From assembly GCA_035692185.1 (NCBI GenBank), contig DASSIE010000010.1, positions 2,879 to 66,878 of the forward strand: DNA of 64,000 nt, given 5' to 3'. Every line of letters begins with the position of its first letter. Position 1 is the first letter of the stretch. The position numbers and the translations under genes were made by a program. This document shows, piece after piece, positions 10,300 to 44,194 of the stretch. The stretch comes from Patescibacteria group bacterium (GTDB lineage: Bacteria > Patescibacteriota > Microgenomatia > UBA8517). Under the pieces are notes generated by a model. That model was not told the origin of the DNA. It made no database searches and saw only the letters and a list, made by a program, of their open reading frames with translations.

Positions 10300-10304
10300 C
10301 TTAT

Positions 10305-11927: not shown

Positions 11928-13263
11928 TTTTATTTTCGCCTTTGTTTTATTTTTATTTCTTGTCTCAAGAATTTATGGAATTGCAGAAATTCCAAAGTCT
12001 GTATATTGGGATGAGGCATCAATTGGATATAATGCATTTTCAATTGCAACTGACTTAAAAGATGAATGGGGAGAAAAGTTGCCATTACATTTTCGAGCAT
12101 TTGGAGAATTTAAACTCCCAGTTTATATTTATACGGTAGCGATTTTTGTAAAAGCAATTGGATTAAATGAATATGCAATAAGACTTCCGGCAGTTTTTTA
12201 TTCATTGGGCTCATTGATACTTGTCTATTTATTAACAAAAAAAATTACAGACAATGAACACACTGCAATTTTTGCAAGTTTTATTCTTATTTTTTCCCCT
12301 TGGTTTTTTATATTTTCAAGAACCGGGTATGAGACAACGGCAGGCCTTTTTTTCTTCTTGTTAGGAACCTACCTTTTTCTTGAGCATACCAAAAAGGGTA
12401 TTTATATTCTCTTTGGAATAATGTCTTTCATTTTGTCATTTTATAGCTATAACTCTTTTAGAGTTATTATCCCGATATGGTTAAGTTTAATGCTGATTTA
12501 CACATACAGTAAAAAGAACATCCCTATAATTATTATTTCGATATCAATTTTTTTGGTTAGTTTAATTCCTGTTTATAGACTTTATAAATTTGATTCGGGG
12601 GGTGCTCGCTTCGCCCAAGTTGAAATTACTAGCAAATTTGATTTTATTAAAAATTATGTTGCCCATTTTTCTCCAAACTTTCTTTTTCTAAAAGGGGACA
12701 CAAATCCTCGCAGCCAAATTCCGGGTCATGGTCAACTTTATTTGTTTGAATTACCACTTTTGCTCCTTGGTTTAGTTGCAATCATTAAGAGCAAAAAAGC
12801 ATTATATTACATACCTTTAATAATTCTTATTTTGGCTCCAATTCCGGCCTCTCTCACTCGTGAGTCGCCACATGCATTAAGATCCCTTCTCGCGGCTCCT
12901 GCTTTTGCAATGATGTCCGCATTAGGAATATATTTTCTGGCGGCCCATTTTAAAAAATACTCAAGCCTAATTGTCTTATTTGTAATAATTTGTTATTACC
13001 TATCCTTTGAGTCATACATGACATCTTTTATAACAAAATACCCATCTCTTTCTGCTTCTGATTGGCAATATCAGTATAAAGAGATATTTGCGACGCAAAA
13101 AAGTGGTAATGTTTCAGATAAATATGCTCAGCCATATATTTTTGCCCTTTATTATTTAAAGTACCCTCCTCAAAAGTTTAGAGATGAAGTTAAATTAAAC
13201 CCAATTAACGATTGGGGGTTTTCTAAAGTCTCATCATTTAACGGATTCAAATTTATAAAATGA
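11917..13263 (+). CDS. GT39/GT83-like (PMT/ArnT-type) membrane glycosyltransferase
   Basis: IAEIPKSVYWDEASIGYNAFSIATDLKDEWGEKLPLHFRAFGEFKLP. C-terminus DWQYQYKEI...PYIFALYYLKYPP. Overlaps the upstream gene. Confidence 0.55.
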   Translation: MKNNFIFAFVLFLFLVSRIYGIAEIPKSVYWDEASIGYNAFSIATDLKDEWGEKLPLHFRAFGEFKLPVYIYTVAIFVKAIGLNEYAIRLPAVFYSLGSLILVYLLTKKITDNEHTAIFASFILIFSPWFFIFSRTGYETTAGLFFFLLGTYLFLEHTKKGIYILFGIMSFILSFYSYNSFRVIIPIWLSLMLIYTYSKKNIPIIIISISIFLVSLIPVYRLYKFDSGGARFAQVEITSKFDFIKNYVAHFSPNFLFLKGDTNPRSQIPGHGQLYLFELPLLLLGLVAIIKSKKALYYIPLIILILAPIPASLTRESPHALRSLLAAPAFAMMSALGIYFLAAHFKKYSSLIVLFVIICYYLSFESYMTSFITKYPSLSASDWQYQYKEIFATQKSGNVSDKYAQPYIFALYYLKYPPQKFRDEVKLNPINDWGFSKVSSFNGFKFIK

Positions 13264-14825
13264 ATAAACTGAAACTAGTTGCCTTATTTTTTATTTTTAT
13301 TTTGGCTGCTGTTTTAAGGTTTTATAAAATTGACAAAGTTCCAGCCTCGCTTAATTGGGATGAGGTAGCGGCTGGTTATAATGCTTACACAATTGCCAAT
13401 TGGGGAGCGGATGAGTATGGTAAAAAGTTCCCAATAGTTTTTAAAAATTTTGGAGACGACAAACACCCTGTTCATATCTATATTACCGCGGCAGTTGTGA
13501 AAATATTTGGATTTTCAGATTATTCAACTCGTGCAGGTAGTGCACTTGTCGGCATGCTTATGGTTGTTGCAATTTATTTTCTTGCAAAAGAAATATTTAA
13601 AAGTGAACTCGCGGGAATTTTATCAAGTTTATTTTTTGCGGTTTCTCCATATGCAATACATTTTTCTAGAGGTTTATGGGAAGCAAATTTTGCGCTTTTT
13701 TTTATGGTTGCCGGAGTTACCGCTTTTTACTTAGGACTTAGGAAACAAAATTTTCTTATTCCGTTATCGTTTTTATTTTGGGGATTATCTTTTTTTTCGT
13801 ATCATTCCGCAAAAATTGTTGTTCCTCCATTAGTTTTATTTCTACTAGTAACTCATTTTAAAGAATTTATTATAAATAAAAAAAATTTGCTTTGGGCGAT
13901 ACTAATAACAATATTTTTTGCAGGCCTCATTATAAAGGAGCCTAGAATATTAGGATTTGCCAGAATTAATCAAACAAGATTTCCTGAAGAAGTAACTCAA
14001 AAATATGGTGGTGAGTTTGGAACAATTGCCCACAATTATAAAGACTATTTTACATATTCATATTTATTTGAAAAGGGAGATCAAACCCCAAGAGGTTCGG
14101 TAAAAGTGATTGGCGAATTTTACAGAATAGATTTTATTCTTTCTCTTGTTGGACTTTCTGTTCTTTTTGTCAAAAAGAAATGGGAAGTTTTGACTATTTT
14201 GTTTTCCTGGCTGTTACTCGCCCCAATTCCAGGTGCTGTATCTTCGGTTGACCCAGGTGCAACAAGGGGGATATTTATGCTAGCCCCGATTTTACTCCTT
14301 TCTGCATATGGAGCAACATCAATTGTACAAATGTTAAAACAAAATTGGGCAAAGTATTTATCAATTGTAGTTATATTAATATTTTTGGGATGGGAAGCTT
14401 TAAACTTTATAAATTACTATTTCAATACTTATCCCGTAAAAGATGCCATTGAATGGCAATATGGGATGAAAGACTCAGTTGCCTATGCTCAGAAGCACTC
14501 CGATTATAGCCTTGTATATATGGACAAAATAAGACAACAGCCATATATTTTCTTCCTTTATTACTTAAAAGTCCCACTTCCCGAGCTCTTGCGTTCGGTT
14601 AAATATGACCAAACAATATCTAGTAGTTACAATACAGTCTCTTCTTTTGGAAAGTACAATTTTGGAAATTGGGATCCAATAGAAAGTTATCCTTCTGCTG
14701 ATATTTTATACATTATTACACCCAGTTTTTATTCAGGGCTAAGATATATATCAAGCTTTGTCGTCCGCAAACTGGTAAAATATCCAGACGGCACTGATGC
14801 CTTCTATTTAGTATCTGGAAAATGA
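13260..14825 (+). CDS. GT39/GT83-like (PMT/ArnT-type) membrane glycosyltransferase
   Basis: FYKIDKVPASLNWDEVAAGYNAYTIANWGADEYGKKFPIVFKNFGDDKHP. C-terminus EWQYGMKDS...PYIFFLYYLKVP. ATGA overlap with the upstream gene. Confidence 0.55.
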   Translation: MNKLKLVALFFIFILAAVLRFYKIDKVPASLNWDEVAAGYNAYTIANWGADEYGKKFPIVFKNFGDDKHPVHIYITAAVVKIFGFSDYSTRAGSALVGMLMVVAIYFLAKEIFKSELAGILSSLFFAVSPYAIHFSRGLWEANFALFFMVAGVTAFYLGLRKQNFLIPLSFLFWGLSFFSYHSAKIVVPPLVLFLLVTHFKEFIINKKNLLWAILITIFFAGLIIKEPRILGFARINQTRFPEEVTQKYGGEFGTIAHNYKDYFTYSYLFEKGDQTPRGSVKVIGEFYRIDFILSLVGLSVLFVKKKWEVLTILFSWLLLAPIPGAVSSVDPGATRGIFMLAPILLLSAYGATSIVQMLKQNWAKYLSIVVILIFLGWEALNFINYYFNTYPVKDAIEWQYGMKDSVAYAQKHSDYSLVYMDKIRQQPYIFFLYYLKVPLPELLRSVKYDQTISSSYNTVSSFGKYNFGNWDPIESYPSADILYIITPSFYSGLRYISSFVVRKLVKYPDGTDAFYLVSGK

Positions 14826-17828: not shown

Positions 17829-17862
17829 GAGTGTTTACAAATGATGAGTGTTTACAAATGAT
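17829..17862 (+). repeat. 17-bp perfect tandem duplication (gagtgtttacaaatgat x2) at the 5' end/leader of the flippase gene
   Basis: Read directly: 17829-17845 equals 17846-17862. It lies between the upstream stop (17822-17824) and the probable ATG ATG start at 17858/17861. Confidence 0.9.
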
Positions 17863-19138
17863 GATAAAACGAATTAAATCTATAATCGCTCACCCATTTT
17901 TTACTAGCAGTGCAATTATGGTTTTAGGAAGTAATTTTGCAAATGCACTGGCATTTATCTACCACCTTGTTATTGGAAGACTTTTGGGTCCTGTTCACTA
18001 CGGGGAACTTGCTGCCGTAATTTCACTGGCCACAATGTTTTCTGCCATTTTTACTTTTCTAAGCACTGTCGTAATTAAATTTACATCAAGCGCTAAGAAT
18101 AGAGATGAAGAGAACTATATATTTTCATGGTTTTCTCAAAAAAGTTTTTTTATTGCCTTAACACTTTTTATTTTGACACTAATATTTTCCCCAATATTTT
18201 CAAATTTTCTCCATATTGAATTAAAGGTTGTGTTGTTAGTTCCATTTTTCTTGTTTTTCTCATTGTTATCGATGGTGTTTAAGTCTTTTTTGCAAGGCCT
18301 CCTCAAGTTTTATGAAACAGTAATATCGTTAAATACAGAATTTATTCTAAGATTGTTATTGGGCATACTTTTTGTTTACCTTGGCTTCTCAGTTTATAGC
18401 GCAATATTAGGTATAGCAATCTCTGGAGCAATTGGTTTTTTTATAACCTTTTATTTTCTAAGGGATTACAAAGTATTGTTCAAAGGTAAAAAAATTAATT
18501 TTAATAAATAAATTTTAGCTTATTCATTGCCTGCATTTCTTTTTTCATTGACCTCCACTTCTTTTTTGACAACGGACACACTTTTAGCAAAACACTTTAT
18601 TGGCGCACACGATGCGGGTATTTACGCTTCACTTTCTAATTTAGGAAAAATAATTTTATACGGAACTATCCCCATCGGAGCTGTAATGTTTCCAATGGTT
18701 TCTAAAAGATTCTCAAAGGGACAAGGTTATATGAGAGTATTTTTGCTTAGTCTAATGCTAACATTTTTGGCTTCAGTTGTAGTTTTAGCAGTGTATAAAT
18801 TTTTGCCAGATGTTGCGATTAATATTTTATATGGAACTAGCTTTTTGGAAGGTGATAAATATTTAATCTGGTTTGGCCTTTTTGCATCAATTTATAGTCT
18901 TACAAGTTTAATTTGCTCATTTTATATGTCTATTGGAAAGGTACGAATTGTTATCTTGCCAATAATTTTTGCGATACTCCAGATAATTGGAATTATATTT
19001 GTTCATGATTCCATAATCGATATTATTAAAGTTTCAGTGGTTTCGGCTACACTTCTTCTGGTTTCTTTGTTAATATACCTTGTATATGAAACCAGAGCCA
19101 AAAACAAACTTAATATCGGTAGTGATCCCGGCCTATAA
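17831..19138 (+). pseudogene. wzx: Wzx-type oligosaccharide flippase (MOP superfamily) interrupted by a single in-frame TAA
   Basis: ORFs 17831..18511 and 18527..19138 are in the same frame, separated only by TAA at 18509-18511 (...KINFNK*ILAYSLPAFLF...). Together about 434 aa with Wzx-like N-half (GSNFANALAFIYHLVIGRLLGPVHYGELAAV) and C-half (LAKHFIGAHDAGIYASLSNLGKII). Could be a true pseudogene, a sequencing error or readthrough. Confidence 0.55.
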
Positions 19139-20650: not shown

Positions 20651-22069
20651 ATGAGGATGCGCAAATATTTTATTTGGGGACTTTTTGTTATCCTGTTAAT
20701 CTTTACAAGATTTTATAATTTAGACAGAACCGCAAGATTTACGGAAGATGAGTCAAAAGATTTGGTTGGGATACATCAAGTCTTTGTAGATAAAAAGCTT
20801 ACTCTTGTAGGCCCAACAAATGAACAAGGTACAAAAGTTTTTAGCTCCCTAACGTTTTACATGTTGCTTCCATTTACGATAATAGGTAAGTTTGACCCGA
20901 TTAGCCCCCATTATGGAGCTGCCTTTTGGGGTGTAATTGTATCCATACTTCTAATATATTTTGTTAATAAAATAAACTCAAAGTTTACGGTTCCAATAGC
21001 ACTACTCACTCTAGTTTGGTTTCCATTTTTGGAAACTAGTAGGTGGGCTTGGAATCCAAATTTAATTCCACTGTGGGTAATTTCGGGAATTATATTAATT
21101 CAAATTCCCAAAAAGTATGCCCGGCTTTTGGCCGGAATTATATTTGGGTTTGCAGTTCACAGTCATTATTATTCAATTTTTGCTGTCGGAATATTTATGG
21201 CAATGTGGTCTGCATATTTCTTATATAAAAAACAATATTCATCATTTGTATTTTTGGGATTAGGTTTTACAATCTCAATTCTGCCTTTTGTAATTTTTGA
21301 TCTTCGCCATAGTCCTGGAATATTTTTACCAAATTTGTTTTCTCAATCGAAGTCTGTGGGAGGTGGATTGGACATGGGTCTAATTCTCCAAAAATTTACT
21401 TCAAATATATGGAGTTTGATGATTGAATACACCCAAGCAACTTATCTCGCAGTTCCACTAATGATTCTCTCTTTGATGCTTCTGATCCAAGATATTAAGA
21501 GAAAGTCCTTTTCCTTAATTTATTTTACCCCTTGGATATTTCAATCCATTATTATTGCCTGTTTACCTCAGTTCTTTCCACACTATCTGATACCTGGTCT
21601 AATATTTTTTCTAGTTTGGGTGATATATAAAAGAGGATTTTCAGGAAAACTTTTGTCTTATTCAATTTTAATAATTCTGATATTGAGAGGATTTATTTCA
21701 ATTTATTCCCAACTTACAACCCCAACTTCGATTCCAGATATTTCAATAACAAGACAGGTTGAAAAAAATATAAAAAACGAAATTGTGTCACGAAATTTGA
21801 AGAACATAAACATCGCGGTTCTAGCAAGTCCGGACACCACTACGTCGGGTAAAAAATACCGAGATCTGCTACTTGTTGACGGTAATATTCATATTTTGAC
21901 AAAGAATGAGTATCAAATAACTGATCATTTGTTTATAATTTCGACGTCCAGTGAGCAGGTTGTACGGAACGACCCCGCAACCGAAATACAAAGATTTAAA
22001 AAAGGAAAGTTGGCAAGCGTAATGCAGATTGATAATTCTGGCTGGTTTATTTACCATTTTTTAAGATGA
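20651..22069 (+). CDS. Polytopic GT-C-like membrane glycosyltransferase (distant GT39-like)
   Basis: N-terminal TM then FYNLDRTARFTEDESKDLVG (DE-type loop), then about 11 TM helices (472 aa). Confidence 0.35.
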   Translation: MRMRKYFIWGLFVILLIFTRFYNLDRTARFTEDESKDLVGIHQVFVDKKLTLVGPTNEQGTKVFSSLTFYMLLPFTIIGKFDPISPHYGAAFWGVIVSILLIYFVNKINSKFTVPIALLTLVWFPFLETSRWAWNPNLIPLWVISGIILIQIPKKYARLLAGIIFGFAVHSHYYSIFAVGIFMAMWSAYFLYKKQYSSFVFLGLGFTISILPFVIFDLRHSPGIFLPNLFSQSKSVGGGLDMGLILQKFTSNIWSLMIEYTQATYLAVPLMILSLMLLIQDIKRKSFSLIYFTPWIFQSIIIACLPQFFPHYLIPGLIFFLVWVIYKRGFSGKLLSYSILIILILRGFISIYSQLTTPTSIPDISITRQVEKNIKNEIVSRNLKNINIAVLASPDTTTSGKKYRDLLLVDGNIHILTKNEYQITDHLFIISTSSEQVVRNDPATEIQRFKKGKLASVMQIDNSGWFIYHFLR

Positions 22070-23163
22070 ATATATTAATACTTAGCTGGAGAGGTCCAGG
22101 CCATCCACTAGCGGGTGGGGCAGAGCAGGTTACCCGTGAGCATGCAAAAGGGTGGATTATAGCCGGAAATAAGATCACTATGTTTACATCACGTTTCGAG
22201 GGTGGAAAACCAAGTGAAACGGTAGATGGAATACAAATTATTAGGAGGGGAGATCAGTTTTTTGGCGTGAAATTGGCGGCATGTAAATGGTATTGGTTTG
22301 AAAATAAAGAGAAATTTGATTTAATAATTGACGAATTCCATGGCCTACCATTTTTTACACCACTTTGGGCTCCAAATGTAAAAAAAATAGGTTTTATCCA
22401 TGAAGTTGCCCAAAAGGTTTGGTCGCTAAACCCTTGGCCCTGGCCGTTTAATAAAATTGCTGCCATTTTAGGTAAATCTGGTGAGCCTTGGATATTTAAA
22501 CTTTTATACACTAAAGTTTCGTTTATGACGGTTTCAAACTCAACTGCCCACGACTTAAAAGCTTGGGGTATAAAAAAAGTAACAGTGATACCAAATGGTG
22601 TTTTGTTGCCAAAAAAATTACCAAAAGTTAAAAAGGATAAAGATTTTACTTTAATATACTTATCAGCTCTTGCTAAAGACAAAGGGGTAGAGGATGCAAT
22701 TGCAACCTTTAATATCGTCAAAGAGAAAATTCCAAATGCTAAATTTTGGATAGTTGGTAAAAGTTATCCAAAATACACAAACTATTTAAAGAGTATGTGC
22801 CCGGAAGCTAAGTTTTGGGGATATGTAACGGATGAAAATAAATTTGATTTGTTGTCGCGGGCTCATTTATTAATATTTCCATCAGTACATGAAGGTTGGG
22901 GACTTGTAATAATAGAGGCAGCTAGTGTTGGTACGCCGACTATTGCCTACAACGTCTCAGGGGTTAGAGACGCCGTAGTGGAAGGTAAAACAGGTTTAAT
23001 GGCAAATAAAGAGACTCCGGAGGAGTTATACAAACTGATTTTGGAATTATATAAAAGTAAAAATCTTTATTTAAAGTTAAGTAAAAATGCAAAAGAATGG
23101 AGCAAAAACTTTTCTTGGGAGCAAAGTATAAAAGAAAGTACTTCATTAATTAATAAAATATAG
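22066..23163 (+). CDS. GT4 family glycosyltransferase
   Basis: EGWGLVIIEAASVGTPTIAYNVSG; GT-B two-domain length (365 aa). ATGA overlap with the upstream gene. Confidence 0.65.
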   Translation: MNILILSWRGPGHPLAGGAEQVTREHAKGWIIAGNKITMFTSRFEGGKPSETVDGIQIIRRGDQFFGVKLAACKWYWFENKEKFDLIIDEFHGLPFFTPLWAPNVKKIGFIHEVAQKVWSLNPWPWPFNKIAAILGKSGEPWIFKLLYTKVSFMTVSNSTAHDLKAWGIKKVTVIPNGVLLPKKLPKVKKDKDFTLIYLSALAKDKGVEDAIATFNIVKEKIPNAKFWIVGKSYPKYTNYLKSMCPEAKFWGYVTDENKFDLLSRAHLLIFPSVHEGWGLVIIEAASVGTPTIAYNVSGVRDAVVEGKTGLMANKETPEELYKLILELYKSKNLYLKLSKNAKEWSKNFSWEQSIKESTSLINKI

Positions 23164-23178
23164 TAGAATGTACCGACT

Positions 23179-24099
23179 ATGAATAAAAAATTATCAGGTG
23201 TTACCGCAATGATCCCCAGCTTTAACTGTAAAAAAAATCTATTTAGAACTTTAGACTTTTTACTTAAGTCAAATTATCCAAATTTGGAAATAATAGTTAT
23301 AGATAATGGTTCCACTGATGGCACGTGGCAAGAAGGCAAAAAGAAATACAAGAAGGTTAAGTGGATAGACGCGGGAGCAATAAATATTGGCCAAACAGGT
23401 TGTTACAATTTGGGTTTTGCACACGCCAATCCTAAAAATCACGTGATGATGGTTGACTCAGATGTTGTTGTGGATAAAGACATGGTAACAAATTTAGTTA
23501 GTAGACTTGAAAGTAAACCAAAAATTGGAGTTGTCACCCCAATGGTTTTATATTTGAATGATGAAAATTGGGTAAATCAAGCTGGATCAACTGTAAACTT
23601 GTGGACTGGAAAAGTAACAATTGGGTGGGGAGACAGGAAAAATTTTTTAAAGGCAAAAGAAGTTCAAGGTTCAGGAACTGTAATGATATTTAAAAGAAAG
23701 TTAATAGAGACAATTGGTGGATTTGAGGATTGGTTCCTTTGTTATTTTGACCCAGAGTATTCTGTAAGAGGTAAGAAAGCTGGTTTTTCGACTTGGTATG
23801 AGCCAGAGGCAATTTGTTATCACGATCAGGACAAAGATGAGGATTATTGGCGACCAAGGGTAATGTCCCGCGCGTTTTTACTTGGTAAAAACAGAACATT
23901 GTTTATGCGCAAACACGGCAAGAATATTCTGGTTTACATATTATTCACACCTTTGTTATTTGCATATTACCTAAGGGAAGCCATAAGATACAACCTAATG
24001 AATAAATGGTACGAGCTAATTCAAGGCACAATCGCTGGGTTTTTCTATCCGCTTGACCAGCGTGTTAAATTACCTCTTCCGGTAATTGATCCGAGATAA
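23179..24099 (+). CDS. GT2 family glycosyltransferase
   Basis: MIPSFNCKKNL...LEIIVIDNGSTDGT...MMVDSDVVV (DXD). Confidence 0.6.
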   Translation: MNKKLSGVTAMIPSFNCKKNLFRTLDFLLKSNYPNLEIIVIDNGSTDGTWQEGKKKYKKVKWIDAGAINIGQTGCYNLGFAHANPKNHVMMVDSDVVVDKDMVTNLVSRLESKPKIGVVTPMVLYLNDENWVNQAGSTVNLWTGKVTIGWGDRKNFLKAKEVQGSGTVMIFKRKLIETIGGFEDWFLCYFDPEYSVRGKKAGFSTWYEPEAICYHDQDKDEDYWRPRVMSRAFLLGKNRTLFMRKHGKNILVYILFTPLLFAYYLREAIRYNLMNKWYELIQGTIAGFFYPLDQRVKLPLPVIDPR

Positions 24100-24556
24100 T
24101 TTCTATATTACAAAAATGCAAAGACTTAATGACGAGGAATATAAATACGTTTATAGTCGATCTCCCAGATTGTGTGTTGATTTAGCAATTGTTACACCAG
24201 AAGGCCTCCTTCTTTCAAAACGATTAATTGAACCATTCAAAAAGAGTTGGCACTTTCCTGGTGGAAGGGTGATATATAAGGAATCAATTAATGACGCAAT
24301 TTCAAGAATTGCCAAAAAAGAAGTTGGCGTTAAAATTAAAACCGAAGAACTTTTAGGATTTTTGGAAATAATTAATGACGGTGAATATGTTCATAGTGTT
24401 AGTTTAGTATTTATTGTGAAAATTAATTCAGGTGAAGTCAAAGGAGGCGATCAAGCAAAACAATTTAAAGCATTTAAAAAAATCCCAGACAACATGCACT
24501 CTTCGCACAAAAAATTTATTAAAAAATATTGGGCGAAAATATTGCGACTTGCTTAA
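24086..24556 (+). CDS. gmm: Nudix hydrolase, GDP-mannose mannosyl hydrolase (Gmm/NudD/WcaH)-like
   Basis: PRLCVDLAIVTPEGLLLSKRLIEPFKKSWHFPGGRVIYKESINDAISRIAKKEVGV aligns by eye with E. coli Gmm ([49 protein letters not shown]). 156 aa. Confidence 0.6.
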   Translation: MIRDNFYITKMQRLNDEEYKYVYSRSPRLCVDLAIVTPEGLLLSKRLIEPFKKSWHFPGGRVIYKESINDAISRIAKKEVGVKIKTEELLGFLEIINDGEYVHSVSLVFIVKINSGEVKGGDQAKQFKAFKKIPDNMHSSHKKFIKKYWAKILRLA

Positions 24557-24586
24557 TCATTACTTCATATGTTATTTTAATATCCA

Positions 24587-25566
24587 TGACTGAAAAAACT
24601 GCATTAGTCTGTGGAGGTGGAGGTTTTATTGGAAGCCACTTAATGAAATTCCTAAAAGATCGCGGATATTGGGTTAGGGGAGTAGATATAAGGTACCCCG
24701 AATATGGTCCAATCGTCGCTGACGATTTTATTAAAGGCGACTTACGAGATATCAATATTGTTAAGCAAGCTTTAGATATTCCATTCGATGAAGTTTATCA
24801 GTTAGCCGCTGATATGGGAGGCGCTGGCTATATTTTTACAGGTGAACACGACGCCGATGTGATGCATAATTCTGCAACAATTAACCTCAACGTTATGGAG
24901 CAAGCTAAGCAAGTTGGTGCCAAAAAAATATTCTTTTCTTCATCAGCCTGTATTTATCCCGCCCACAATCAAGTAGACCCAGACAATCCGAATTGTGCCG
25001 AAGACTCTGCCTATCCCGCTGCGCCAGATAGTGAATATGGATGGGAAAAATTATTTAGTGAAAGAATGTATTTGGCATATCATAAAAATCACGGTCTGGA
25101 TGTTCGTATTGCACGGTTTCATAATATTTTTGGCCCAGAAAGTGCTTGGAACAATGGTAAAGAAAAAGCTCCATGCGCGATTTGCAGAAAAGTTGCCGAA
25201 ACTCCAGACGGTGGGGAAATGGAGATGTGGGGAGACGGAGAGCAAACCAGATCATTCTTATATATTGATGAGTGTTTGCAAGGCATAAGACGACTTATGG
25301 ACTCAAACTTTATGGGACCAGTTAACATCGGATCAGAAGAAATGGTAACAATCAATGAACTTGCTAAAATGGCTATGAAAATTGCAGGCAAAAAAATTAC
25401 AATTAAACACATCGATGGCCCTCAAGGGGTGAGGGGCCGGAGGTCTGACAACAAATTAATTATGCAAAAACTTAATTGGGCCCCAAACTACCCGTTAGTT
25501 AAAGGTATCGAGAAAACTTACAATTGGATAAAAGGCATGATCGAGAAAGAATCAACCTCACTTTAA
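24587..25566 (+). CDS. GDP-mannose 3,5-epimerase-like extended SDR (start chosen at MTEKTALV)
   Basis: GGGGFIGSHL Rossmann motif. LAADMGG.GYI, FSSSACIYP, YGWEK (YxxxK), RFHNIFGP, EKAPCAICRK, MWGDGEQTRSF.YIDEC and PVNIGSEEMV.INE match the plant/bacterial GDP-mannose 3,5-epimerase (GME) pattern block for block. Confidence 0.65.
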
Positions 25567-26556
25567 AACTTCTTTAATATGATTTTTAAGTTTTTTTGTT
25601 TGTCTGCCATTGAGCAGGAATATCATGTCGTTTGATTTACAATAAATTACATTATCTGTAATAATCCCAGCACGCCATATCAAGTTATAGATTTTTAGAC
25701 TCGTAACAAGCTCAAACATAGGAATAAATAATCTGCCAGTTTTGCAAATACTCCAAAACAATTTGGGAAGGTTTATAGATTTATAATCTACACCTATCTC
25801 TTTATGCATAAATTTACTCATCTGGGCCAAGGTTAGGTGCTCACCATGTAACAGATAAATTTTATTACTATATACTGATGGGGGATTACTTATTGTAGAA
25901 ATTATTGATTGAGCTACGTTGTCTACATGTATCAAACTTGATAATCCTGGCCAATTTAGTCTTGCAAAAATAGATTTCTTTTGAATAAGTCCACTTAGAA
26001 AATCAAACAAACTATCTGGCCTCATGCCAGATCCATAAATAGTGTTTGGTTTTAAAATACTCAATTTAAATCCATCAATTTTTTGTCGTTCAACTAAAAT
26101 ATTTTCGCCTCTTACTTTACTTCTCGTATATTCATTCGTTGGCGACATAGGTGAATATTTACTAAACGGTTTTGAACAATTTATTCTTCCGCTCCATGCA
26201 ACCATGGTTCCAAAATGTACAAAGTGCGTATTGGGTCCTAACTTGCCAAATGTATTTAACAAGTTTTCTACACCAACATCATTACACCTATGGTCTGTAA
26301 CAGCAGTATCGGTAATCGCTGCAAGATTGATTATGACTTCTGGGGATTTGGGTAGATTTTTAAGTCCCTTCTTGGTAACTAAGTTTATGTACTTAGTTTT
26401 AACTTCCATTTCTTTTAACAATTTTCTCCCCTCGATTTCTAACGGGCCGTTGGCATCTTTTATTAAGCATAAAATATTTTTTACACCATATTTTTTAACA
26501 GCCAATTTAATAAATCGCTTTCCAACAAAACCTGTTGCCCCGGTTATTATTATCAT
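25558..26556 (-). CDS. NAD-dependent epimerase/dehydratase family (extended SDR) sugar-nucleotide enzyme
   Basis: MIIITGATGFVGKRF (GxxGxxG), catalytic YTRSK. 332 aa. 3' end overlaps the GME gene. Confidence 0.55.
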   Translation of the reverse strand: MIIITGATGFVGKRFIKLAVKKYGVKNILCLIKDANGPLEIEGRKLLKEMEVKTKYINLVTKKGLKNLPKSPEVIINLAAITDTAVTDHRCNDVGVENLLNTFGKLGPNTHFVHFGTMVAWSGRINCSKPFSKYSPMSPTNEYTRSKVRGENILVERQKIDGFKLSILKPNTIYGSGMRPDSLFDFLSGLIQKKSIFARLNWPGLSSLIHVDNVAQSIISTISNPPSVYSNKIYLLHGEHLTLAQMSKFMHKEIGVDYKSINLPKLFWSICKTGRLFIPMFELVTSLKIYNLIWRAGIITDNVIYCKSNDMIFLLNGRQTKKLKNHIKEVLK

Positions 26557-26578
26557 CCTACGACATCATAATACACAA

Positions 26579-26613
26579 TTGACATATTGCCAATCTGACA
26601 ATATCATTGGCAA
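26579..26613 (+). promoter_or_regulatory. Putative sigma70-like promoter (TTGACA-N17-TATCAT) with overlapping 8-bp inverted repeat (TTGCCAAT-N11-ATTGGCAA)
   Basis: Read directly in the 69-bp divergent intergenic region: TTGACA 26579-26584, TATCAT 26602-26607, ATG at 26626. Inverted repeat arms at 26587-26594 and 26606-26613. Confidence 0.3.
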
Positions 26614-26625
26614 GCAATAACAGAT

Positions 26626-29082
26626 ATGCCTAAAAATAAAAAAAATGTATTAGTAACAGGGTCGGGTGGTTTAATTGGATCTGAGTCAGTGCATTTTTTT
26701 TGCGAAAAAGGATTTAATGTTATAGGAATCGACAATAATATGAGGGAGTATTATTTCGGACAAGAGGCAAGTACGAAAGGTAATGTTAAACAAATAGTTG
26801 ATACATACAAAAATTATAAACATTTTAATTGTGATATAAGGGACTCTGAAAATATTGAAGAAATATTTAAAACTTATAATTTTGATTTAATTATTCATAC
26901 AGCTGCGCAACCATCACATGATTGGGCCGCGAGGGAACCCCAGACTGACTTCAGTGTTAACGCAAACGGGACACTTAACCTGCTCGAGAATTTTAGAAAA
27001 TATTCTCCAAAAGCAGTTTTTATTTATACTTCAACTAATAAAGTTTATGGTGACACACCAAACAAATTGCCACTAATTGAACTAAAAACTAGATATGAGA
27101 TTGAATCAAGTCATAAATATAAAAATGGAATTGATGAATCAATGTCGATCGACAATAGCACTCATTCGTTGTTTGGTGTGTCAAAAGCTTCAGCTGATTT
27201 AATGGTTCAGGAGTACGGGAAATATTTTGGTTTATTTACTGGAGTTTTTAGGGGTGGGTGTCTTACAGGTTCTCGACATGCTGGAACGCAACTCCATGGA
27301 TTTTTGTCGTACTTAATTAAAAGTATTGTTACAGGCAAAAAATATACAATATTTGGTTACAAAGGAAAACAAGTTCGGGATAACATTCATTCACACGACT
27401 TGGTAAACGCTTTTTATCATTTTTATTTAAAACCCAGGATTGGTGAAGTCTATAATATTGGAGGATCAAGATACTCTAACGTCTCGATGTTGGAGGCAAT
27501 TGATAAAATAGAAAAAGTTACAGGCAAAAAAGCCAATGTAGAATATGTTGATGAAAACAGAATAGGAGACCATATTTGGTATGTTTCTTCAGTAAAAAAA
27601 TTTCAATCGCACTATCCAGAATGGAAGTATGAATACGATATAGATGCAACCATTTGGGATATTTGTAAAAATAGTGAATTTGCCAAAGATTTAATTTCAT
27701 TTTCAATTGCAAGGGATTTAGATTATTGGAGAGATAAAAATTGGTATTTTCATAATGCCTTAAAGGATATTTTTAAAACTTTTATTCCAGAGGATTCTAA
27801 AGTGCTTCAAGTTGGGTATGGTTTGGGTGACATATTAGCATCACTTTTTCCAAAAAATGCTTTAAGTGTTGATGACGATCCAAATATAATTATCAGTTCA
27901 ACTAAAAGATATCCCCATATTAGATTTCAGAATTTAGATATCGCCAAAACAAACATAAAAGAAAAATTTGATTATGTGATATTTCCAAACTCAATTGAGC
28001 ACATGTTTGATGTACAAACTGTTTTAGAGAAAGTAAAGAGTAGCCTTCATAAAGATTCAAGAATAATTATCACGTCTGTAAATCCTCGCTGGCAACAGCT
28101 TTTTTCCATATTAGAGAAATTCAAACTTAAAAGACCTGAGGCTCCAAAAAATTGGTTAAGACTTGAAGATCTGGTTAATATTGTTGAAATTTCTGGCTAT
28201 GAAATAGTTAATACAGGCTTTAAAGTTCTTTTACCTACGCATATACCACTTATTAGCAATTGGGTTAATAAGTTTAACTCACGTTTTTGTGTTGAGCAGT
28301 ATTTGGTTGCAAAGTCGAAGATCAAAAGTAAGGCAAAACCACTTACTTGTTCGGTAATAATACCTTGCTTTAACGAGGAGGAAAATATTAAGAAATGTAT
28401 TAATTCCGTGCCGAAGATGGGCAAGAGAACCGAAATAATTGTAGTTGACGACGGGTCAACAGATAAGACTTCAAGTGTTGTTAAAAATTTGATGAAGAAA
28501 AATAAAAATTTAAGATTAATATCATATAAACCAAATAAAGGGAAAGGTTATGCAGTAAAGCAGGGTTTTGATGGTGCCAAAGGGGATGTGGTAATGATTT
28601 TGGATGCTGATATGGCAGTACCTGTATCGGAGTTGCCGAGGTTTTTCAATTTATTAGAGTCTAAAGAAGCTGGTTTTGTAAATGGCACACGTTTAATTTA
28701 TCCAATGGAAGATCAGGCAATGCGGCAATTAAACTTAATTGGAAATCTTGTTTTTGGATGGATATTCTCATGGGTATTAAATCAAAGAATAACAGACACT
28801 TTATGTGGGACCAAAGCATTGCTTAAAAAGGATTATTTAAAAATTAAAATGGGTGGAGAATCATGGGGTGACTTCGACCTATTATTCGGCGCTGCAGAAA
28901 ACAAACTTAAAATCGTAGACATGCCTGTTCACTATATGAGGAGAGTGGCAGGTAAGTCAAAAATGAAAGCATTTCAGCATGGCTTGGTACTAGCTAAAAT
29001 GTGTTTCGTAGGTTGGTGGCGTTTAAAAGCGTCTCCATTATTTCGTAACACGAAAAGAGATGTGAGAAAACGGGTAAAATAA
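26626..29082 (+). CDS. Tri-domain fusion: N-terminal NDP-sugar epimerase-like SDR domain, central class-I-MTase-like domain, C-terminal Dpm1-like GT2 polyprenol-phosphate glycosyltransferase
   Basis: Residues 1-~340: [12 protein letters not shown]...STNKVYGD, resembling CDP-paratose 2-epimerase-type SDRs, but the YxxxK Tyr is replaced ([10 protein letters not shown]). Residues ~380-540: [12 protein letters not shown]...[14 protein letters not shown] (MTase-like fold). Residues ~560-818: [14 protein letters not shown]...[12 protein letters not shown]...[29 protein letters not shown]...[10 protein letters not shown] (Dpm1/ArnC-like). Confidence 0.6.
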
Positions 29083-29592
29083 AGGAGTCTCTACAGGTTC
29101 AACTTCATATTTAAGTTTGTTCTTAACAAATATTTTTTTCCATTGATCAGGACGTCTAAAAGTAAACGGAATGCGCATAAACGGGTTATGAATTTTATTT
29201 AAGATGTAATCAGATATTGTTCCAATTAATGTTGGTTGGACCTCAAAGATTAGAACCTGCTTTGATACTCTTAAGGCGTCAAGGATTAATTTTTCCTGGA
29301 TAGTGTATGGAATATGATGAAGAACATCATTAAACATTGCACTTTTAAACTCATTTCTTTTGAAAGGTAAGGAATCCTCCTTTTTAATTAGTTTAAACGC
29401 GATTTTGTTTGTGAGATATTTTAAGGTATCGCATCCATATATCTTTAAATCGAAATCCTCCGCTATCTGCTTACTCACAACTCCATTTCCGCAACCAACA
29501 TCTACGACCTTTTCGTTTGATTTTAGCCACCTTTGATAAGCCTTAATGATTAACTTACCTCGTATTTTTGATGTGTAATCAGCGAGTGCCAT
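29038..29592 (-). CDS. Class I SAM-dependent methyltransferase
   Basis: [14 protein letters not shown] motif I, FNDVLHHI post-II. 184 aa. 3' end overlaps the convergent tri-domain gene by 45 nt. Confidence 0.55.
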
Positions 29593-31351
29593 ATAGTATT
29601 TCTGATTTTATATCTGTTAGTGAGTTGTCGGGCTCGAGTCTAAAAGCAAAAGTGTTTCTTACATCAATTTTTTTTGCGACACCCCAGTTAAACCCCTTAA
29701 GCTTTTCACCGTCTTTAATGGCTGATTTGAATTGTTCCCTGTTTTCAATTACATATAAACTTCCCGGTCTATCGGGCGACTTTTCATATACGATCATTCT
29801 AGGTATAAAACCAAATGTAATCACATCGCGCACAATACTATCGTTACCGTTTTTGGGCTCAAAATAAAATAAATAATCTTTTTTTGGATCCAGATTGGGT
29901 ATTTTAGTAAGTATGTTTTTCCAAACGGTTTGAGATATATCTTCCGAATGTGTCACGATCAAATTTTTTAAATATGATTGTGTCGAGGAATATTGAATAA
30001 GATAAAGTGGTATAACGAGTAGCGCTAACATAAAATTTTGTAAATTAGATTTTTTAATTGCAAACAATACACCGATTAATATTGCAATTGATATTCCGGG
30101 CGCAATTAAATAACGCATAGCCGATGGGATGTAAGTTAATGGAGTAAAGACAAATGGAACTGCGGCAAATCCGACAAGCCAGAAAAGTCCAATAAATAGA
30201 CTCTTTCTGATATTGTCTTGTTTAGCAAAAAAAATGAGAAGTGTACTCGTTACTATTAATGCGCCACCTACCATTGTCAAAAATACAGTGTTTGGTGACA
30301 TAGTGTTTGTACTTATACGGACAAAGAAATTTATTGTGAATATAAGAATAAGCATTAATAGACATATTGCAATAATAAACTTTTTCCTATTCTTTTTTTC
30401 AATAAGTAAAACACCAAGTGCGGTAAGAACTATCGAAAATAATACCCAAAAAGGTAAAAGGAACGCCCTCAACCAAGACATATTTTGAGCTTTATAGACA
30501 GTACGCGGAATTTGAACATGGTTCATATATTGGTCGGTAAAGATCATATTACCAATTGTCGTTAGTGGGTATAGATATTGTTCATAATGGCCATTTTCCA
30601 TAGCTTCTGAGTTTTCCTTAAGCCCTTTACGGACATATGTATCAAAATTAGAGGATCCCGATCCAAGTACTCCCCAGCTTGAAAGTATAAAGAAGGAAAT
30701 AACCCAAATACTATTTATCAGTATAAATTTTTTAATTGAAACAATACCTTTCCAATTTTTGAAAAGGAAATATGTTTCGATTAAAAACAAAACAATAAAA
30801 GCACCATGCATTCTTACTGGAACAGAAATCACTGAAAGGAGAAATAACGGAACACTTGTTAATAAAAGTATTTTCTTCGATGTTTCGTGATACTTTAAAA
30901 CTAGTGCTACAACTATTAAAAATATCGCTAGTCCTAAATATGAATTCATATTAAAAACCCAATTTGTAGATTCGATACCGATTTCACTAACTGCCCAAAA
31001 TAGACTAGCAACAAAAGCAGATAGTCTATTTTTTGTTATTTGAAAAACTAATATATATAGTGATATCGAAACTAGACTTCGAAAAAATAAAGATGCCGCA
31101 AAATATGGAATAGGGTTTAATCCAAAAAACTTATCGATAATACCCATTATTAAGTATGTTGGGCCATACGGGGAAAGATAGCTTACTAAGTCAAATGGAA
31201 TAGACCCAAAATTACCGTGTTGAACTTGATATTTAAAAATGTAAAGAACTAGCCAGTCATCTCCAAACAAACTGAGGCCAAAACTGAGTCTAAAGGCAAT
31301 TGCTCCGATTATTATTACTAACAAAATTGGCAATATATGTTTTCGAATCAT
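29579..31351 (-). CDS. Polytopic integral membrane protein, putative GT-C-like glycosyltransferase
   Basis: 590 aa with more than 12 hydrophobic helices and short loops. No soluble catalytic motifs recognised. Confidence 0.3.
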   Translation of the reverse strand: MIRKHILPILLVIIIGAIAFRLSFGLSLFGDDWLVLYIFKYQVQHGNFGSIPFDLVSYLSPYGPTYLIMGIIDKFFGLNPIPYFAASLFFRSLVSISLYILVFQITKNRLSAFVASLFWAVSEIGIESTNWVFNMNSYLGLAIFLIVVALVLKYHETSKKILLLTSVPLFLLSVISVPVRMHGAFIVLFLIETYFLFKNWKGIVSIKKFILINSIWVISFFILSSWGVLGSGSSNFDTYVRKGLKENSEAMENGHYEQYLYPLTTIGNMIFTDQYMNHVQIPRTVYKAQNMSWLRAFLLPFWVLFSIVLTALGVLLIEKKNRKKFIIAICLLMLILIFTINFFVRISTNTMSPNTVFLTMVGGALIVTSTLLIFFAKQDNIRKSLFIGLFWLVGFAAVPFVFTPLTYIPSAMRYLIAPGISIAILIGVLFAIKKSNLQNFMLALLVIPLYLIQYSSTQSYLKNLIVTHSEDISQTVWKNILTKIPNLDPKKDYLFYFEPKNGNDSIVRDVITFGFIPRMIVYEKSPDRPGSLYVIENREQFKSAIKDGEKLKGFNWGVAKKIDVRNTFAFRLEPDNSLTDIKSEILYGTR

Positions 31352-37601: not shown

Positions 37602-39818
37602 TTGATTGTAACATTAAAGCCAGTGTATTTGTATTTTGGATATAATATACTTGCACAAGTGAAAAAATTAATATTTCGTTTTAAAGACCAACTTTTCCTA
37701 ATTTGTTTATCATCCTCCCTAGTTTTTATATGGTTTTATAAAGGATTGATATTCGCTGGTGGAGAAGAGGGAATACCATTTTATAACCTTAACAATGCGT
37801 TTTACCTTTTTGCATATTCTTGGAGAGATTTTTCAGGTGGAATTCCAATGTCAACTGATTTAGCTAGAATTCCATTTTTTTGGATTCTTAAACTTCTAAG
37901 TAACTATTCAATACCTTCTTACTTTCTCCAAGCCGCCACCTTTTTAACGTTAATTATCGTTGGAGTTGTATCAGTATACTATTTGTTAAAAATAACTTTG
38001 GGCAACAGATTAAAATCAGGTTCACTTTTAGAACAAAGGTTATACAGTAAAGTCTCGCTTATTGGAGCTATTTTTTACCTATTAAATCCCTATTCAATGG
38101 TTCAGGTCTGGGGAAGAGGTTTGTATAACCAGTTTTTCCCCTTTGCGTTACTTCCTTTGTTTCTGGTTTTATTTATTCAGGGTGTTAAAAAGAAAAGATT
38201 TATATATGGTTTGTTGGCAGTTATTTCTTCCCTACTACTATCAGTATCGTTTGGTCAGCCTAGTTATGTTATTTCAATTTGGTTAACAATTTTTATCTAT
38301 ATAGTTTTTGAAGTATTTAAAACAAAAGATTTTGCACAGCGAAAATTTATAATTTTATACTCCTTAACAGTTTTTACGTCATGGATATTGGTGCATTCAT
38401 GGTGGATTTGGCCACTGTTTAAAACAATTAATGAAACGGTTGATAAGTTGGGTGATTTGCAATCTAATATTGGAAGTTTAAAGGGGATTAGTAAGGACTC
38501 TCCAATCTGGGTCATTATGACACTCACCCACAAATTCTTATTTGCAGGAGCTTACGGAAATATATATTCAGGACTTCCCTTTAAATTGATAAGTTTATTG
38601 GTACCAATATCTTTTTTTGTTTCATTACCACTTTTTAAAAGATTTAGTTACTTCAAATTTTATTTATGTTTATTTTTGGTATCAATTTTTATTGTTTCGG
38701 GTACAAATTTTCCATTTGGTTGGCTATTTCTTTGGTTTTTCAAGAATATTTCAATTTTTCAAGTCTTTAGGAATCCCTATGAAAAAATGGGAATTGTGTT
38801 AATGCTTGCTTGTATTCCCTTCATTTCCATTGGTCTTGTAAAAACAAGTATTTTAATACACAAATTTTATAAAAAAATTTCTGCAAAAGTATTTTTATTG
38901 ATTCTTATGTTTTTAATGTGCGGAATTTATGTTTGGCCGATGTGGACAGGTCAATTTGCAGGAGGGGTTGTTATGAGTCCATGGGCTAGTGTGCCAGTTG
39001 ATTACAAACTAGCCAATGATTGGATTAAAAGCCAGGACACAAATTCTCGAATAATTCAATTCCCATTAAACCCCGGGGACGGTGTTTTCTATACATGGCA
39101 AAATGCATATAGGGGAATTGAACCTAGCGAATTTATTTTTGATAATTCATCGATCGGAAGGAATGTGGCTATAAATAAAGTTTACTACAATGTTTTACTG
39201 GAAAGGTTTGGCGTCTTACAGAAAAACGCTTTTGGCCCAGACCCCGATATTTCTTCCTCTGAATTTCGTTCAGAAAATTTATATCAGGAATTAAACAAAC
39301 TTGATGTTAGATATATTGTTTTACATAACGATATTAATGAGAAATTAAGTGGCTTACAAAACTCAAAAGAGGTCTCCCAATATTTATCAAAGCAAAAAAA
39401 TATACAAAAGGTTAATACATTTGGTTTATTAGATATCTACGAAGTTAAAGTTCGCGATGGGGTAGATCGTATATATTCGCCAAATGTAAAGACAAATTAT
39501 CAAAAAGTTAATCCAACTTTTTACAGATTCAATGTTGAAAATTCAACTTCTAAAGCCCAGCTTAATTTTTTGGAAACATATAGCCCAAATTGGGAGTTAT
39601 TTATTGATGGTAAAGAAATCGAAACACATTCAATAGTTTTTTCTTATGCCAATTCATGGACTATCAACAGAACTGGTACCTATTCAGGGTACATTAAATA
39701 CAAAACTCAAGATTATGTTACTGAGGGTGGAAAAATTAGCATTGTAACTTTAATCGTGTTAATAATAATGATTGTGGTTTTAGTTTTGAAAAAGAGAATA
39801 AAAAAAGAACAATGGTAA
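37602..39818 (+). CDS. Large GT-C-like membrane protein with extracytoplasmic C-terminal domain and C-terminal TM anchor (YfhO/AftD-like architecture), paralog 1 of 3
   Basis: 738 aa. N-terminal motif GGEEGIPFYNL and FRNPYEKMGIVL are shared with 44170..47715. C-terminal NWELFIDGKEI...YSGYIKYK beta-rich domain, then the final TM LIVLIIMIVVLVL. Confidence 0.4.
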   Translation: MIVTLKPVYLYFGYNILAQVKKLIFRFKDQLFLICLSSSLVFIWFYKGLIFAGGEEGIPFYNLNNAFYLFAYSWRDFSGGIPMSTDLARIPFFWILKLLSNYSIPSYFLQAATFLTLIIVGVVSVYYLLKITLGNRLKSGSLLEQRLYSKVSLIGAIFYLLNPYSMVQVWGRGLYNQFFPFALLPLFLVLFIQGVKKKRFIYGLLAVISSLLLSVSFGQPSYVISIWLTIFIYIVFEVFKTKDFAQRKFIILYSLTVFTSWILVHSWWIWPLFKTINETVDKLGDLQSNIGSLKGISKDSPIWVIMTLTHKFLFAGAYGNIYSGLPFKLISLLVPISFFVSLPLFKRFSYFKFYLCLFLVSIFIVSGTNFPFGWLFLWFFKNISIFQVFRNPYEKMGIVLMLACIPFISIGLVKTSILIHKFYKKISAKVFLLILMFLMCGIYVWPMWTGQFAGGVVMSPWASVPVDYKLANDWIKSQDTNSRIIQFPLNPGDGVFYTWQNAYRGIEPSEFIFDNSSIGRNVAINKVYYNVLLERFGVLQKNAFGPDPDISSSEFRSENLYQELNKLDVRYIVLHNDINEKLSGLQNSKEVSQYLSKQKNIQKVNTFGLLDIYEVKVRDGVDRIYSPNVKTNYQKVNPTFYRFNVENSTSKAQLNFLETYSPNWELFIDGKEIETHSIVFSYANSWTINRTGTYSGYIKYKTQDYVTEGGKISIVTLIVLIIMIVVLVLKKRIKKEQW

Positions 39819-43480: not shown

Positions 43481-44194
43481 ATGTTTAAAAAATTTGTTAG
43501 GAACGTTGTCAAGGTTGTTTATCATGCAATGCAAAAGACATCGATTGGAAGAGTAATCGAGGAAGAATTTGAAATGTTTGCCTATTCTGGTACAGGGTCC
43601 AGGCATTTTGAATACCCGTTTGCCATATCTGAGGTTCTTAAAAAGAAAAGCAAAATAAAAACAATTCTTGATGCTGGAAGTTATGGTTCACTTTTACCAC
43701 TTATCCTTGCCAGTATGGGATTTAAAGTTACAGGTGCTGATATCAATTTTTGGGAAGTTAAATTTCCGAACTTTTCTGCAGCAAAGGTTGACTTAAAAAA
43801 GATCCAATATAAAACTAGATCCTTTGATTGTGTAACCGCAGTATCCACTATTGAGCATGTAGGACTACCACGTTTTCGTGAAGAGATTGATGAGAATGGA
43901 GACATTGATGCAATGACAGAGCTTGTCCGAGTTTTAAAAAAGGGTGGGCCTCTTGTTTTAACTGTGCCATATGCACCAAAATACAGGGTGTGGTCTAATA
44001 AAGGACGTTTTTATGATTCAAAAAGATTGGCACTTCTAACTGAAGGGATAAAGATTACAAAGAAGGAATTTTTTGGACCATTGGGTTCAGGTGGGCACAA
44101 TTTTGGATCTTGGACCGAAAAACAAGCAAATACAAAGAAATTTAAGCGAGAAGGTGATCACTGTGTAGTTTGTTTAGTCGGTGTAAAGATATGA
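43481..44194 (+). CDS. Class I methyltransferase-like protein
   Basis: ILDAGSYGSLLPLILASMGFKVTGADI (motif I-like), FDCVTAVSTIEHV, LKKGGPLVLTVP. Confidence 0.45.
   Translation: MFKKFVRNVVKVVYHAMQKTSIGRVIEEEFEMFAYSGTGSRHFEYPFAISEVLKKKSKIKTILDAGSYGSLLPLILASMGFKVTGADINFWEVKFPNFSAAKVDLKKIQYKTRSFDCVTAVSTIEHVGLPRFREEIDENGDIDAMTELVRVLKKGGPLVLTVPYAPKYRVWSNKGRFYDSKRLALLTEGIKITKKEFFGPLGSGGHNFGSWTEKQANTKKFKREGDHCVVCLVGVKI

Follow-up and report, generated by a model that had tools for sequence, protein, structure and literature searches.

The DNA analysed here (the window) is a stretch of 64 kb, AT-rich with a GC content of ~33%, from a metagenome-assembled genome (MAG) of the Patescibacteria (Candidate Phyla Radiation, CPR). 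Pfam analysis of its open reading frames (ORFs) showed glycosyltransferases (GT) of the GT2, GT4 and GT-C types, methyltransferases and flippases along the whole window, which is a glycan-assembly locus. An earlier note on this DNA had drawn attention to three ORFs, coding for a Nudix hydrolase, an epimerase and a convergent short-chain dehydrogenase/reductase (SDR), and all three were found in the window. The epimerase belongs to the GDP-mannose 3,5-epimerase family (GME, also termed GM35E). Overall, the sequence evidence makes it quite probable that the locus codes for a true GM35E/GME enzyme and for a Nudix protein that would be a Gmm-related GDP-hexose hydrolase, and that the convergent SDR (SDR3) goes with a neighbouring block built around a fusion protein.

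Identification of the epimerase

The epimerase gene is located at 24586..25566 on the forward strand and codes for an extended SDR of 326 aa. The earlier note had placed its start at 24587, one base out of frame; that frame contains 19 stops, and the start was replaced by the in-frame ATG at 24586. The motifs quoted for the protein were all present in the ORF, namely LAADMGG (aa73), SSACIYP (aa119), RFHNIFGP (aa177), EKAPCAICRK (aa193), MWGDGEQTRSF (aa214), YIDEC (aa226) and PVNIGSEEMV (aa245). A phmmer search of the PDB gave Arabidopsis GME (2c59) as the top match, with E=1.6e-91 and 310 bits over residues 8-323 of 326, and a second plant GME (8sg0) scored 295 bits. The next SDR family was UDP-glucuronate decarboxylase (UXS) with 120 bits, while GalE and GDP-fucose synthase scored 97 bits or less. 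The best matches were therefore characterised GMEs and not the UDP-glucose or UDP-glucuronate 4-epimerases. Pairwise alignment with Arabidopsis GME (AtGME) showed 46.7% identity over 319 columns, and the Pfam Epimerase model matched the full length of the protein with 142 bits.

GM35E can be told apart from GalE and GDP-fucose synthase by the residues S143/Y174/K178, C145/K217, R306, R243 and N203 (PMC8787198, Beerens et al.). The C145/K217 pair epimerises C5 and C3, and it is the Lys, not His, that sets GM35E apart from GDP-fucose synthase; Arg306 (Lys in GMER) acidifies the Cys and Arg243 contacts the diphosphate (PMC8787198). All eight of these signature residues were found in the window GME and were conserved in 16 close homologues. 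They comprise the catalytic triad S120, Y151 and K155 (AtGME Ser143/Tyr174/Lys178), the acid-base pair C122 (in SSACIYP) and K194 (in EKAP) (AtGME Cys145/Lys217), and R285, R222 and N180 (AtGME Arg306, Arg243 and Asn203), the last three being invariant in the alignment. The NAD+ motif G10-G-G-G13-F-I-G16 was also invariant in the alignment of the window GME with its close homologues. With the Cys/Lys acid-base pair and the other signature residues in place, the assignment to the GME family in the earlier note holds, and ORF 24586..25566 can be named GM35E with confidence, its activity being predicted.

The protein aligns over its full length with the GM35E/GME enzymes of Arabidopsis thaliana (Q93VR3, PDB 2C59/2C54) and Methylacidiphilum (MfGM35E, I0K0X9), and shares with them the GxxGxxG motif, the S/Y/K triad, the Cys/Lys pair, the Cys-acidifying Arg, the diphosphate-binding Arg and the orange-wall Asn. 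It differs from plant GME in that it does not have the ~25-aa N-terminal and ~30-aa C-terminal extensions (326 vs 377 aa), and in that its gene lies outside the ascorbate-pathway context, in a CPR bacterium. The glycan-cluster context of the window GME agrees with that proposed for MfGM35E. Only one bacterial GM35E has been characterised, that of Methylacidiphilum fumariolicum; it shows 50.5% identity to AtGME, and its products are GDP-L-galactose (GDP-L-Gal) as well as GDP-L-gulose (GDP-L-Gul) (PMC6678494, PMC8787198). A predicted L-galactose or L-gulose donor is thus well supported for the window. An identical protein is named [quoted passage not shown] by NCBI, a generic name that arises because NCBIfam has no GM35E model, and several close homologues are annotated by JGI as GDP-D-mannose 3',5'-epimerase.

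Distribution of the epimerase

A word-indexed protein search returned at least 8000 homologous protein clusters of the window GME, all at E<=1e-20, and the best 120 of these were 71-94% identical. A scan of one genome per GTDB species gave at least 600 pattern matches, at least 592 of which were confirmed as GME relatives. The best 80 of these relatives showed 61-74% identity and were distributed over the Patescibacteria, Acidobacteriota, Bacteroidota, Planctomycetota, Omnitrophota, Myxococcota and Alpha-/Gammaproteobacteria; they included cultured Bradyrhizobium, Methylobacterium and Emticicia, and also one archaeal MAG. The remark in the earlier note that L-galactose and L-gulose are unusual in bacterial glycans was therefore overstated, with GME-family genes in at least 592 species representatives of many phyla. 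Because of this wide distribution across species and phyla, the GME gene is a routine part of bacterial glycan loci, though L-Gal and L-Gul are seldom reported chemically. GM35E genes occur far more widely among bacteria than would be expected from the one bacterial enzyme characterised so far; the window GME is an ordinary member of a widespread family and does not overturn current understanding. Literature searches for GME in Patescibacteria returned nothing relevant, and what the window GME predicts is the presence of L-hexoses in the almost unstudied surface glycans of this group.

The main clade of GME was unusually conserved over distant phyla, with 61-74% identity from Patescibacteria to Alphaproteobacteria and the one archaeal MAG, which points to strong constraint, to frequent horizontal transfer or to both. 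CPR loci also contained a second, divergent class of GME, with 43-52% identity. One Nudix-linked GME protein (L001:6423-7388, from the same organism as L002 and L090) has Leu at the Cys145 position (SSALVYP) with the other seven signature residues intact, and may be an inactive or mechanistically altered paralogue.

A non-canonical outcome of the window GME was also considered, in which the reaction stops at GDP-L-gulose (5-epimerisation) or another GDP-hexose is involved, e.g. GDP-glucose linked to the TyvE-like domain of the neighbouring fusion protein. There are family members in L-gulose pathways (BlmG, cited in PMC6678494), TyvE-type enzymes can interconvert GDP-glucose and GDP-mannose in vitro (PMC12188384), and GME subclades at 43-50% identity exist, as does the L001 protein with Leu for the catalytic Cys. 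The window protein, however, falls within the highly conserved main clade and has all the signature residues, among them the acid/base pair required for double epimerisation, and the two characterised clades (plant and Methylacidiphilum) each yield L-Gul and L-Gal (PMC8787198). A non-canonical outcome is distinctly unlikely.

Characterisation of the Nudix protein

The Nudix gene is located at 24116..24556 on the forward strand, upstream of the GME gene, and codes for 146 aa. The ORF of 156 aa described in the earlier note begins at TTG 24086, inside the upstream GT2 gene (stop 24099). The first residue in every homologue and in the gene model of NCBI is a Met 10 codons downstream, so that ATG 24116 is most likely the start of the gene and TTG 24086 is probably unused.

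As a single sequence, the protein matched Pfam NUDIX with 38.9 bits, and generic MutT proteins of the PDB scored slightly above Gmm. A word-based search found five relatives. When their profile was used in an exhaustive HMMER search, 95 cluster representatives were obtained at E<=1e-30 and as many as 1248 at E<=1e-10, so that the family is real and sizeable. With the family profile, E. coli Gmm (1rya) was the first match in the PDB, with 57 bits when the profile was built from 6 sequences and 77 bits when it was built from 69. The 69-sequence profile matched Gmm with E=1.3e-20, 15 bits ahead of the best generic MutT. The NCBIfam Gmm model in turn matched 68 of the 69 family members, more than the model of any other family did, with a best E of only 6.6e-19.

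The window protein carries a degenerate Nudix box, G50-x5-E56-x7-R64-I65-x3-E69-x-G71, for which the Gmm counterpart is R-L-T-M-A-E-L-G. Neither the Nudix family nor Gmm has the canonical Glu of "RE" or the first of the two in "EE", and GDP-sugar glycosyl hydrolases are known for having lost residues of the Nudix box (PMC5389931). The likeness to the Gmm box that had been pointed out earlier is present in the protein (WHFPGGRV...E.......RI...E.G), although the spacing in the motif as quoted was slightly off. Residues D22, R37, R52, R65 and E70 of Gmm align with D22, R36, R51, R64 and E69 of the window protein; in Gmm these five are reportedly the GDP/Mg2+ ligands, as described by Gabelli et al. 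in 2004 and by Legler et al. The equivalents of D22, R37, R65 and E70 were 87-100% conserved across the 69 sequences of the family, whereas that of R52, present in the window protein as R51, was found in 33 of the 69. Further likeness to E. coli Gmm/WcaH/NudD (P32056, PDB 1RYA) was seen in the similar size (146 vs 160 aa) and in an N-terminal L-x2-E-x-F/Y...P...D helix-strand motif. The AlphaFold model of the protein had a predicted local distance difference test (pLDDT) score of 96.7 and a Nudix fold, and structural alignment with Gmm showed 20-23% identity.

Other results weigh against the equation of this protein with Gmm. The NCBIfam Gmm model NF011963 gave 42 bits for the window protein against a cutoff of 146 bits, and Foldseek with the structural model placed 1rya at the top (1.6e-9) in a near tie with a generic Aquifex Nudix protein (2.0e-9). 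In Gmm, His124 is the general base for the attack at mannose C1, and Tyr103 is also catalytic. The position of His124 is A114 in the window protein and is occupied in the family by Ala (37), Ser (17) or Gly (7) (61/69) and never by His, while the position of Tyr103 is S94, with Ser (44) or Thr (9) in the family (53/69); the alignment with Gmm in this C-terminal stretch has moderate posterior confidence. Of the label "Gmm-type" used in the earlier note, it stands that Gmm is the nearest solved and curated relative, with the degenerate box and the GDP/Mg ligands common to both; the score below the cutoff and the Ala and Ser residues in place of His124 and Tyr103 point to a sister family. The protein is a member of a Gmm-related sister family and not a Gmm orthologue, and the family very probably binds a GDP-linked ligand.

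Members of ~310 aa with two tandem copies of the domain were also observed in this Nudix family (P0212, P0213, P0215, P0259, P0301 and P0321). Literature searches for a Nudix protein acting on GDP-L-galactose returned nothing relevant.

Linkage of the Nudix and epimerase genes

In L001/L002 and L004, too, a homologous Nudix gene directly precedes a gene of the GME family and overlaps or abuts it. From a metagenome scan with the 6-sequence alignment, 48 unique loci of the Nudix family had a flank of 1.1 kb or more on at least one side, and in 8 of these 48 (~1 in 6) a GME-family gene lay within 1.5 kb. The GME neighbours were of different subclades, 43-71% identical to the window GME, and kept all eight signature residues except in the L001/L090 organism, which has Leu for the catalytic Cys. 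Several other members of the Nudix family adjoin other sugar-nucleotide SDRs. As GME is at most one gene per genome of several hundred to thousands, the linkage is far above chance. The arrangement parallels the colanic acid (wca) cluster of E. coli, where gmm lies beside fcl and Gmm is thought to trim or proof-read the GDP-sugar pool, in that a Nudix gene stands beside that of a GDP-hexose-modifying SDR. A sizeable Gmm-related Nudix family without the catalytic His, recurrently linked to GME-family genes, is of modest novelty.

The linkage has clear limits, which count against a functional tie of the two genes. Most Nudix family members do not adjoin GME, and among the best 80 GME loci of the species genomes only one had a gene of this Nudix family within 6 kb, for which reason an obligate Nudix-GME two-gene module was rejected. 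In L085, the nearest related contig (identity to the window: GME 74%, fusion protein 81%, GT2 79%), GT2 abuts GME with no Nudix gene between them. In L003, the Nudix homologue lies among integrase/resolvase genes and other Nudix genes. The Nudix-GME link is therefore recurrent and far above chance, but facultative.

The same limits, together with the near tie in Foldseek, would fit a house-cleaning hydrolase (MutT-like or for another NDP-X) with no tie to GME, whose position is a chance insertion in a large, plastic glycan locus. This explanation is rather unlikely. The REUxEE glutamates for ordinary pyrophosphatase chemistry are replaced (R-I-x3-E) as in Gmm, and Gmm was consistently the top profile match. 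Adjacency to GME in 8 of 48 loci is far more than chance would give, involves differing GME subclades with ORFs that often overlap or abut, and goes along with the family members that adjoin other sugar-nucleotide SDRs. The most economical reading is that the Nudix protein would hydrolyse GDP-hexoses in an accessory role, by which the pool of GDP-sugars is controlled or kept clean, much as has been proposed for Gmm.

The convergent SDR and the neighbouring block

SDR3 (332 aa) is encoded at 25558..26556 on the reverse strand, convergent to the GME gene, and the 3' ends of the two genes overlap by 9 nt. The protein matched Pfam Epimerase with 61 bits and NAD_binding_4 with 47 bits, and G6, G9 and G12 (GxxGxxG) as well as Y143-x3-K147 were invariant in the alignment of its homologues. 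Its AlphaFold2 model had a pLDDT of 95.3, and Foldseek gave extended SDRs with a template modelling score of ~0.7 and 12-18% identity, a generic result. The best PDB profile match was a UDP-GlcA 4-epimerase (6zl6, 65 bits), and the NCBIfam matches were scattered (HpnA, thioester reductase, RmlD and GalE) and did not come near the respective cutoffs. SDR3 is an orphan extended SDR, and none of these matches places it in a characterised subfamily or points to its substrate. A total of 84 homologues were found, mostly in Patescibacteria.

Divergent from SDR3 is the gene for a fusion protein of 818 aa (26626..29082, forward strand), with a TyvE-like SDR domain (aa ~1-350), a class I methyltransferase domain (aa ~380-530) and a GT2 domain (aa ~575-790), as seen from Pfam, NCBIfam and PDB matches. 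The N-terminal domain matched CDP-tyvelose 2-epimerase (TyvE/CPa2E) best in the PDB, with 138 bits for 9rl0 and 133 bits for 1orr. The C-terminal GT2 domain resembles the DPM1/ArnC/AglJ/PpgS-type dolichyl-/undecaprenyl-phosphate sugar transferases; its best NCBIfam matches were AglJ, dolichyl-P hexose transferase, ArnC and PpgS-like polyprenyl-phosphate sugar synthases. The fusion differs from these known proteins in that all its scores are well below the equivalog cutoffs, and to our knowledge a three-domain architecture with a central methyltransferase has not been described for the TyvE or the polyprenyl-phosphate sugar synthase families. A methyltransferase of 184 aa (29038..29592) and a membrane protein of 590 aa with ~10 hydrophobic segments (29579..31351), both on the reverse strand, are conserved partners of SDR3 and the fusion gene.

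The order of GME, convergent SDR3, divergent fusion gene (818-828 aa) and small methyltransferase gene was the same in the window and in contigs L085, L086 and L087. The GME of these contigs was 74%, 49% and 50% identical to that of the window, respectively, and the fusion protein beside SDR3 was conserved at 70-81% identity. In distant genomes (L168, L169 and L170), SDR3 stays beside a methyltransferase-GT2 (MT-GT2) protein of 458-500 aa with no GME at its slot, which holds a GT4 gene in L168, a standalone TyvE-like SDR gene in L169 and a GT-C gene in L170. SDR3 also lies beside a membrane protein of ~595 aa in L168 and L169, L168 keeps the small methyltransferase, and L170 keeps only the orphan SDR and MT-GT2, with a PMT_2 GT-C. 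The homologues of the 184-aa methyltransferase and the 590-aa membrane protein showed 74% and 64% identity in L085 and 48% and 26% in L168/L169, respectively.

These data bear on the proposal in the earlier note of a GDP-sugar module with three enzymes, in which SDR3 would convert GDP-L-galactose or GDP-L-gulose further, e.g. by 4-epimerisation or reduction. Four contigs (the window, L085, L086 and L087) have GME and SDR3 side by side in convergent orientation although their GME has diverged to 49-74% identity, and SDR3 has the intact GxxGxxG and YxxxK motifs and the extended-SDR fold typical of NDP-sugar enzymes. Against this, SDR3 persists with MT-GT2 and the membrane protein in distant genomes where a GT4, a TyvE-like SDR or a GT-C takes the GME slot, and no GDP-sugar enzyme matched SDR3 better than UDP-/dTDP-sugar enzymes or thioester reductases. 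In the 80 best GME loci of the species genomes there was no convincing SDR3 homologue, the single match scoring 29 bits. Further processing of the GDP-sugar by SDR3 was therefore not borne out and is doubtful, and SDR3 as a general companion of GME was rejected, as it travels with MT-GT2 instead.

Since the synteny of SDR3 with MT-GT2 persists where GME is absent, SDR3 probably belongs foremost to a lipid-linked-sugar branch, with GME as an add-on in some lineages. In a genome of the Magasanikbacteria (L007), the gene that immediately precedes GME codes for an MT-GT2 homologue, in keeping with the idea that GME may feed this branch. The conserved block of SDR3, the TyvE-MT-GT2 fusion and the membrane protein is a new, if modest, finding.

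Counted as five parts (orphan SDR, TyvE-like SDR, MT-GT2, small methyltransferase and ~590-aa membrane protein), the block mostly recurs in L085-L087, L168 and L169, with the TyvE-like domain either as part of a fusion or as a separate protein. The block has the look of an uncharacterised unit of Patescibacteria for the modification and transfer of lipid-linked sugars.

Predicted pathway

By homology with the Arabidopsis and Methylacidiphilum enzymes, the window GME would bind NAD+ tightly and oxidise C4 of GDP-D-mannose by means of Y151, K155 and S120. C122 and K194, acting as acid and base, would then invert C5 and afterwards C3, and C4 would be re-reduced, giving an equilibrium of GDP-D-mannose, GDP-L-gulose and GDP-L-galactose. 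Of the many glycosyltransferases that the locus encodes, one would consume the L-hexose donor. The Nudix protein would be an optional accessory that hydrolyses a GDP-hexose, either the substrate or a product of the epimerase, and thereby keeps the pool of GDP-sugars trimmed or proof-read; it would do so without the His general base of Gmm, and with two canonical metal-binding glutamates lost as in Gmm. SDR3 would work with the SDR-MT-GT2 fusion and the membrane protein in a probable polyprenyl-phosphate-sugar branch, and does not demonstrably go with the GDP-sugar step.

A point against this pathway is that no manC, manB, manA or gmd gene was found by Pfam among the window ORFs of at least 110 aa, so that the supply of GDP-mannose is assumed. 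The TyvE-like domain of the fusion protein could, speculatively, be the source of GDP-mannose in a window without manC, manB and gmd.

Two linked readings of greater novelty were also considered, and we regard them as unlikely. The first is that the His-less Nudix protein is a dedicated GDP-hexose hydrolase for GME. If so, it would hydrolyse GDP-L-galactose or GDP-L-gulose (or a GDP-hexose) and pull the unfavourable equilibrium of the epimerase, or it would release free or phosphorylated L-hexose as a bacterial analogue of the plant step that follows GME. The second is that GME feeds the conserved block, where the fusion protein, the orphan SDR, the small methyltransferase and the membrane protein with 10 transmembrane segments would build a polyprenyl-phosphate-linked, possibly methylated, L-hexose donor, which the many GT-C enzymes of CPR bacteria would use for glycosylation outside the cytoplasm.

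Gene layout and other features of the window

The GME gene is preceded on the forward strand by co-directional genes for a polytopic membrane protein, a GT4, a GT2 and the Nudix protein, and is followed by the convergent SDR3 gene. The membrane protein (472 aa, within 20651..24099) has 7 hydrophobic segments; like the 590-aa membrane protein, it had no Pfam match, relaxed search included. The GT4 gene is located at 22066..23163 (Pfam Glycos_transf_1, 110 bits) and the GT2 gene at 23179..24099 (Pfam Glycos_transf_2, 77 bits). Because their stops and starts overlap or are closely spaced, these five genes (20651..25566) are probably one transcription unit.

SDR3 and the fusion gene, which are divergent, are separated by 69 bp (26557..26625), and on either strand the best sigma70-like match of the region was found in this interval. 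The two matches are TTGACA-17-TATCAT at 26579..26607 on the forward strand (11/12) and TTGGCA-17-TATGAT at 26593..26565 on the reverse strand (10/12). The promoter and terminator scans rest on consensus match alone, and the site totals of the region were not above the shuffle expectation, so that these matches are descriptive.

Elsewhere in the window, four consecutive co-directional paralogues of GT-C (PMT_2/ArnT-like) membrane glycosyltransferases, 448-540 aa in length, are located at 8821..14825. A further PMT_2 protein is encoded at 57235..58563, and an AftD-like GT-C match was obtained at 37602..39818. The GT-C proteins would need sugar donors linked to polyprenyl phosphate. Two giant ORFs in the middle of the locus, 44170..47715 (1181 aa) and 47930..50683 (917 aa), had no Pfam match even at E<=0.5, and may code for novel enzymes or for surface proteins that are glycosylated. 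The Pfam model Polysacc_synt (Wzx-type flippase) matched only an ORF of 226 aa at 17831..18511, which is followed by an ORF of 203 aa with no match at 18527..19138, and the two could represent one flippase gene that has been split or frameshifted. A flippase of 427 aa is encoded intact at 50638..51921.

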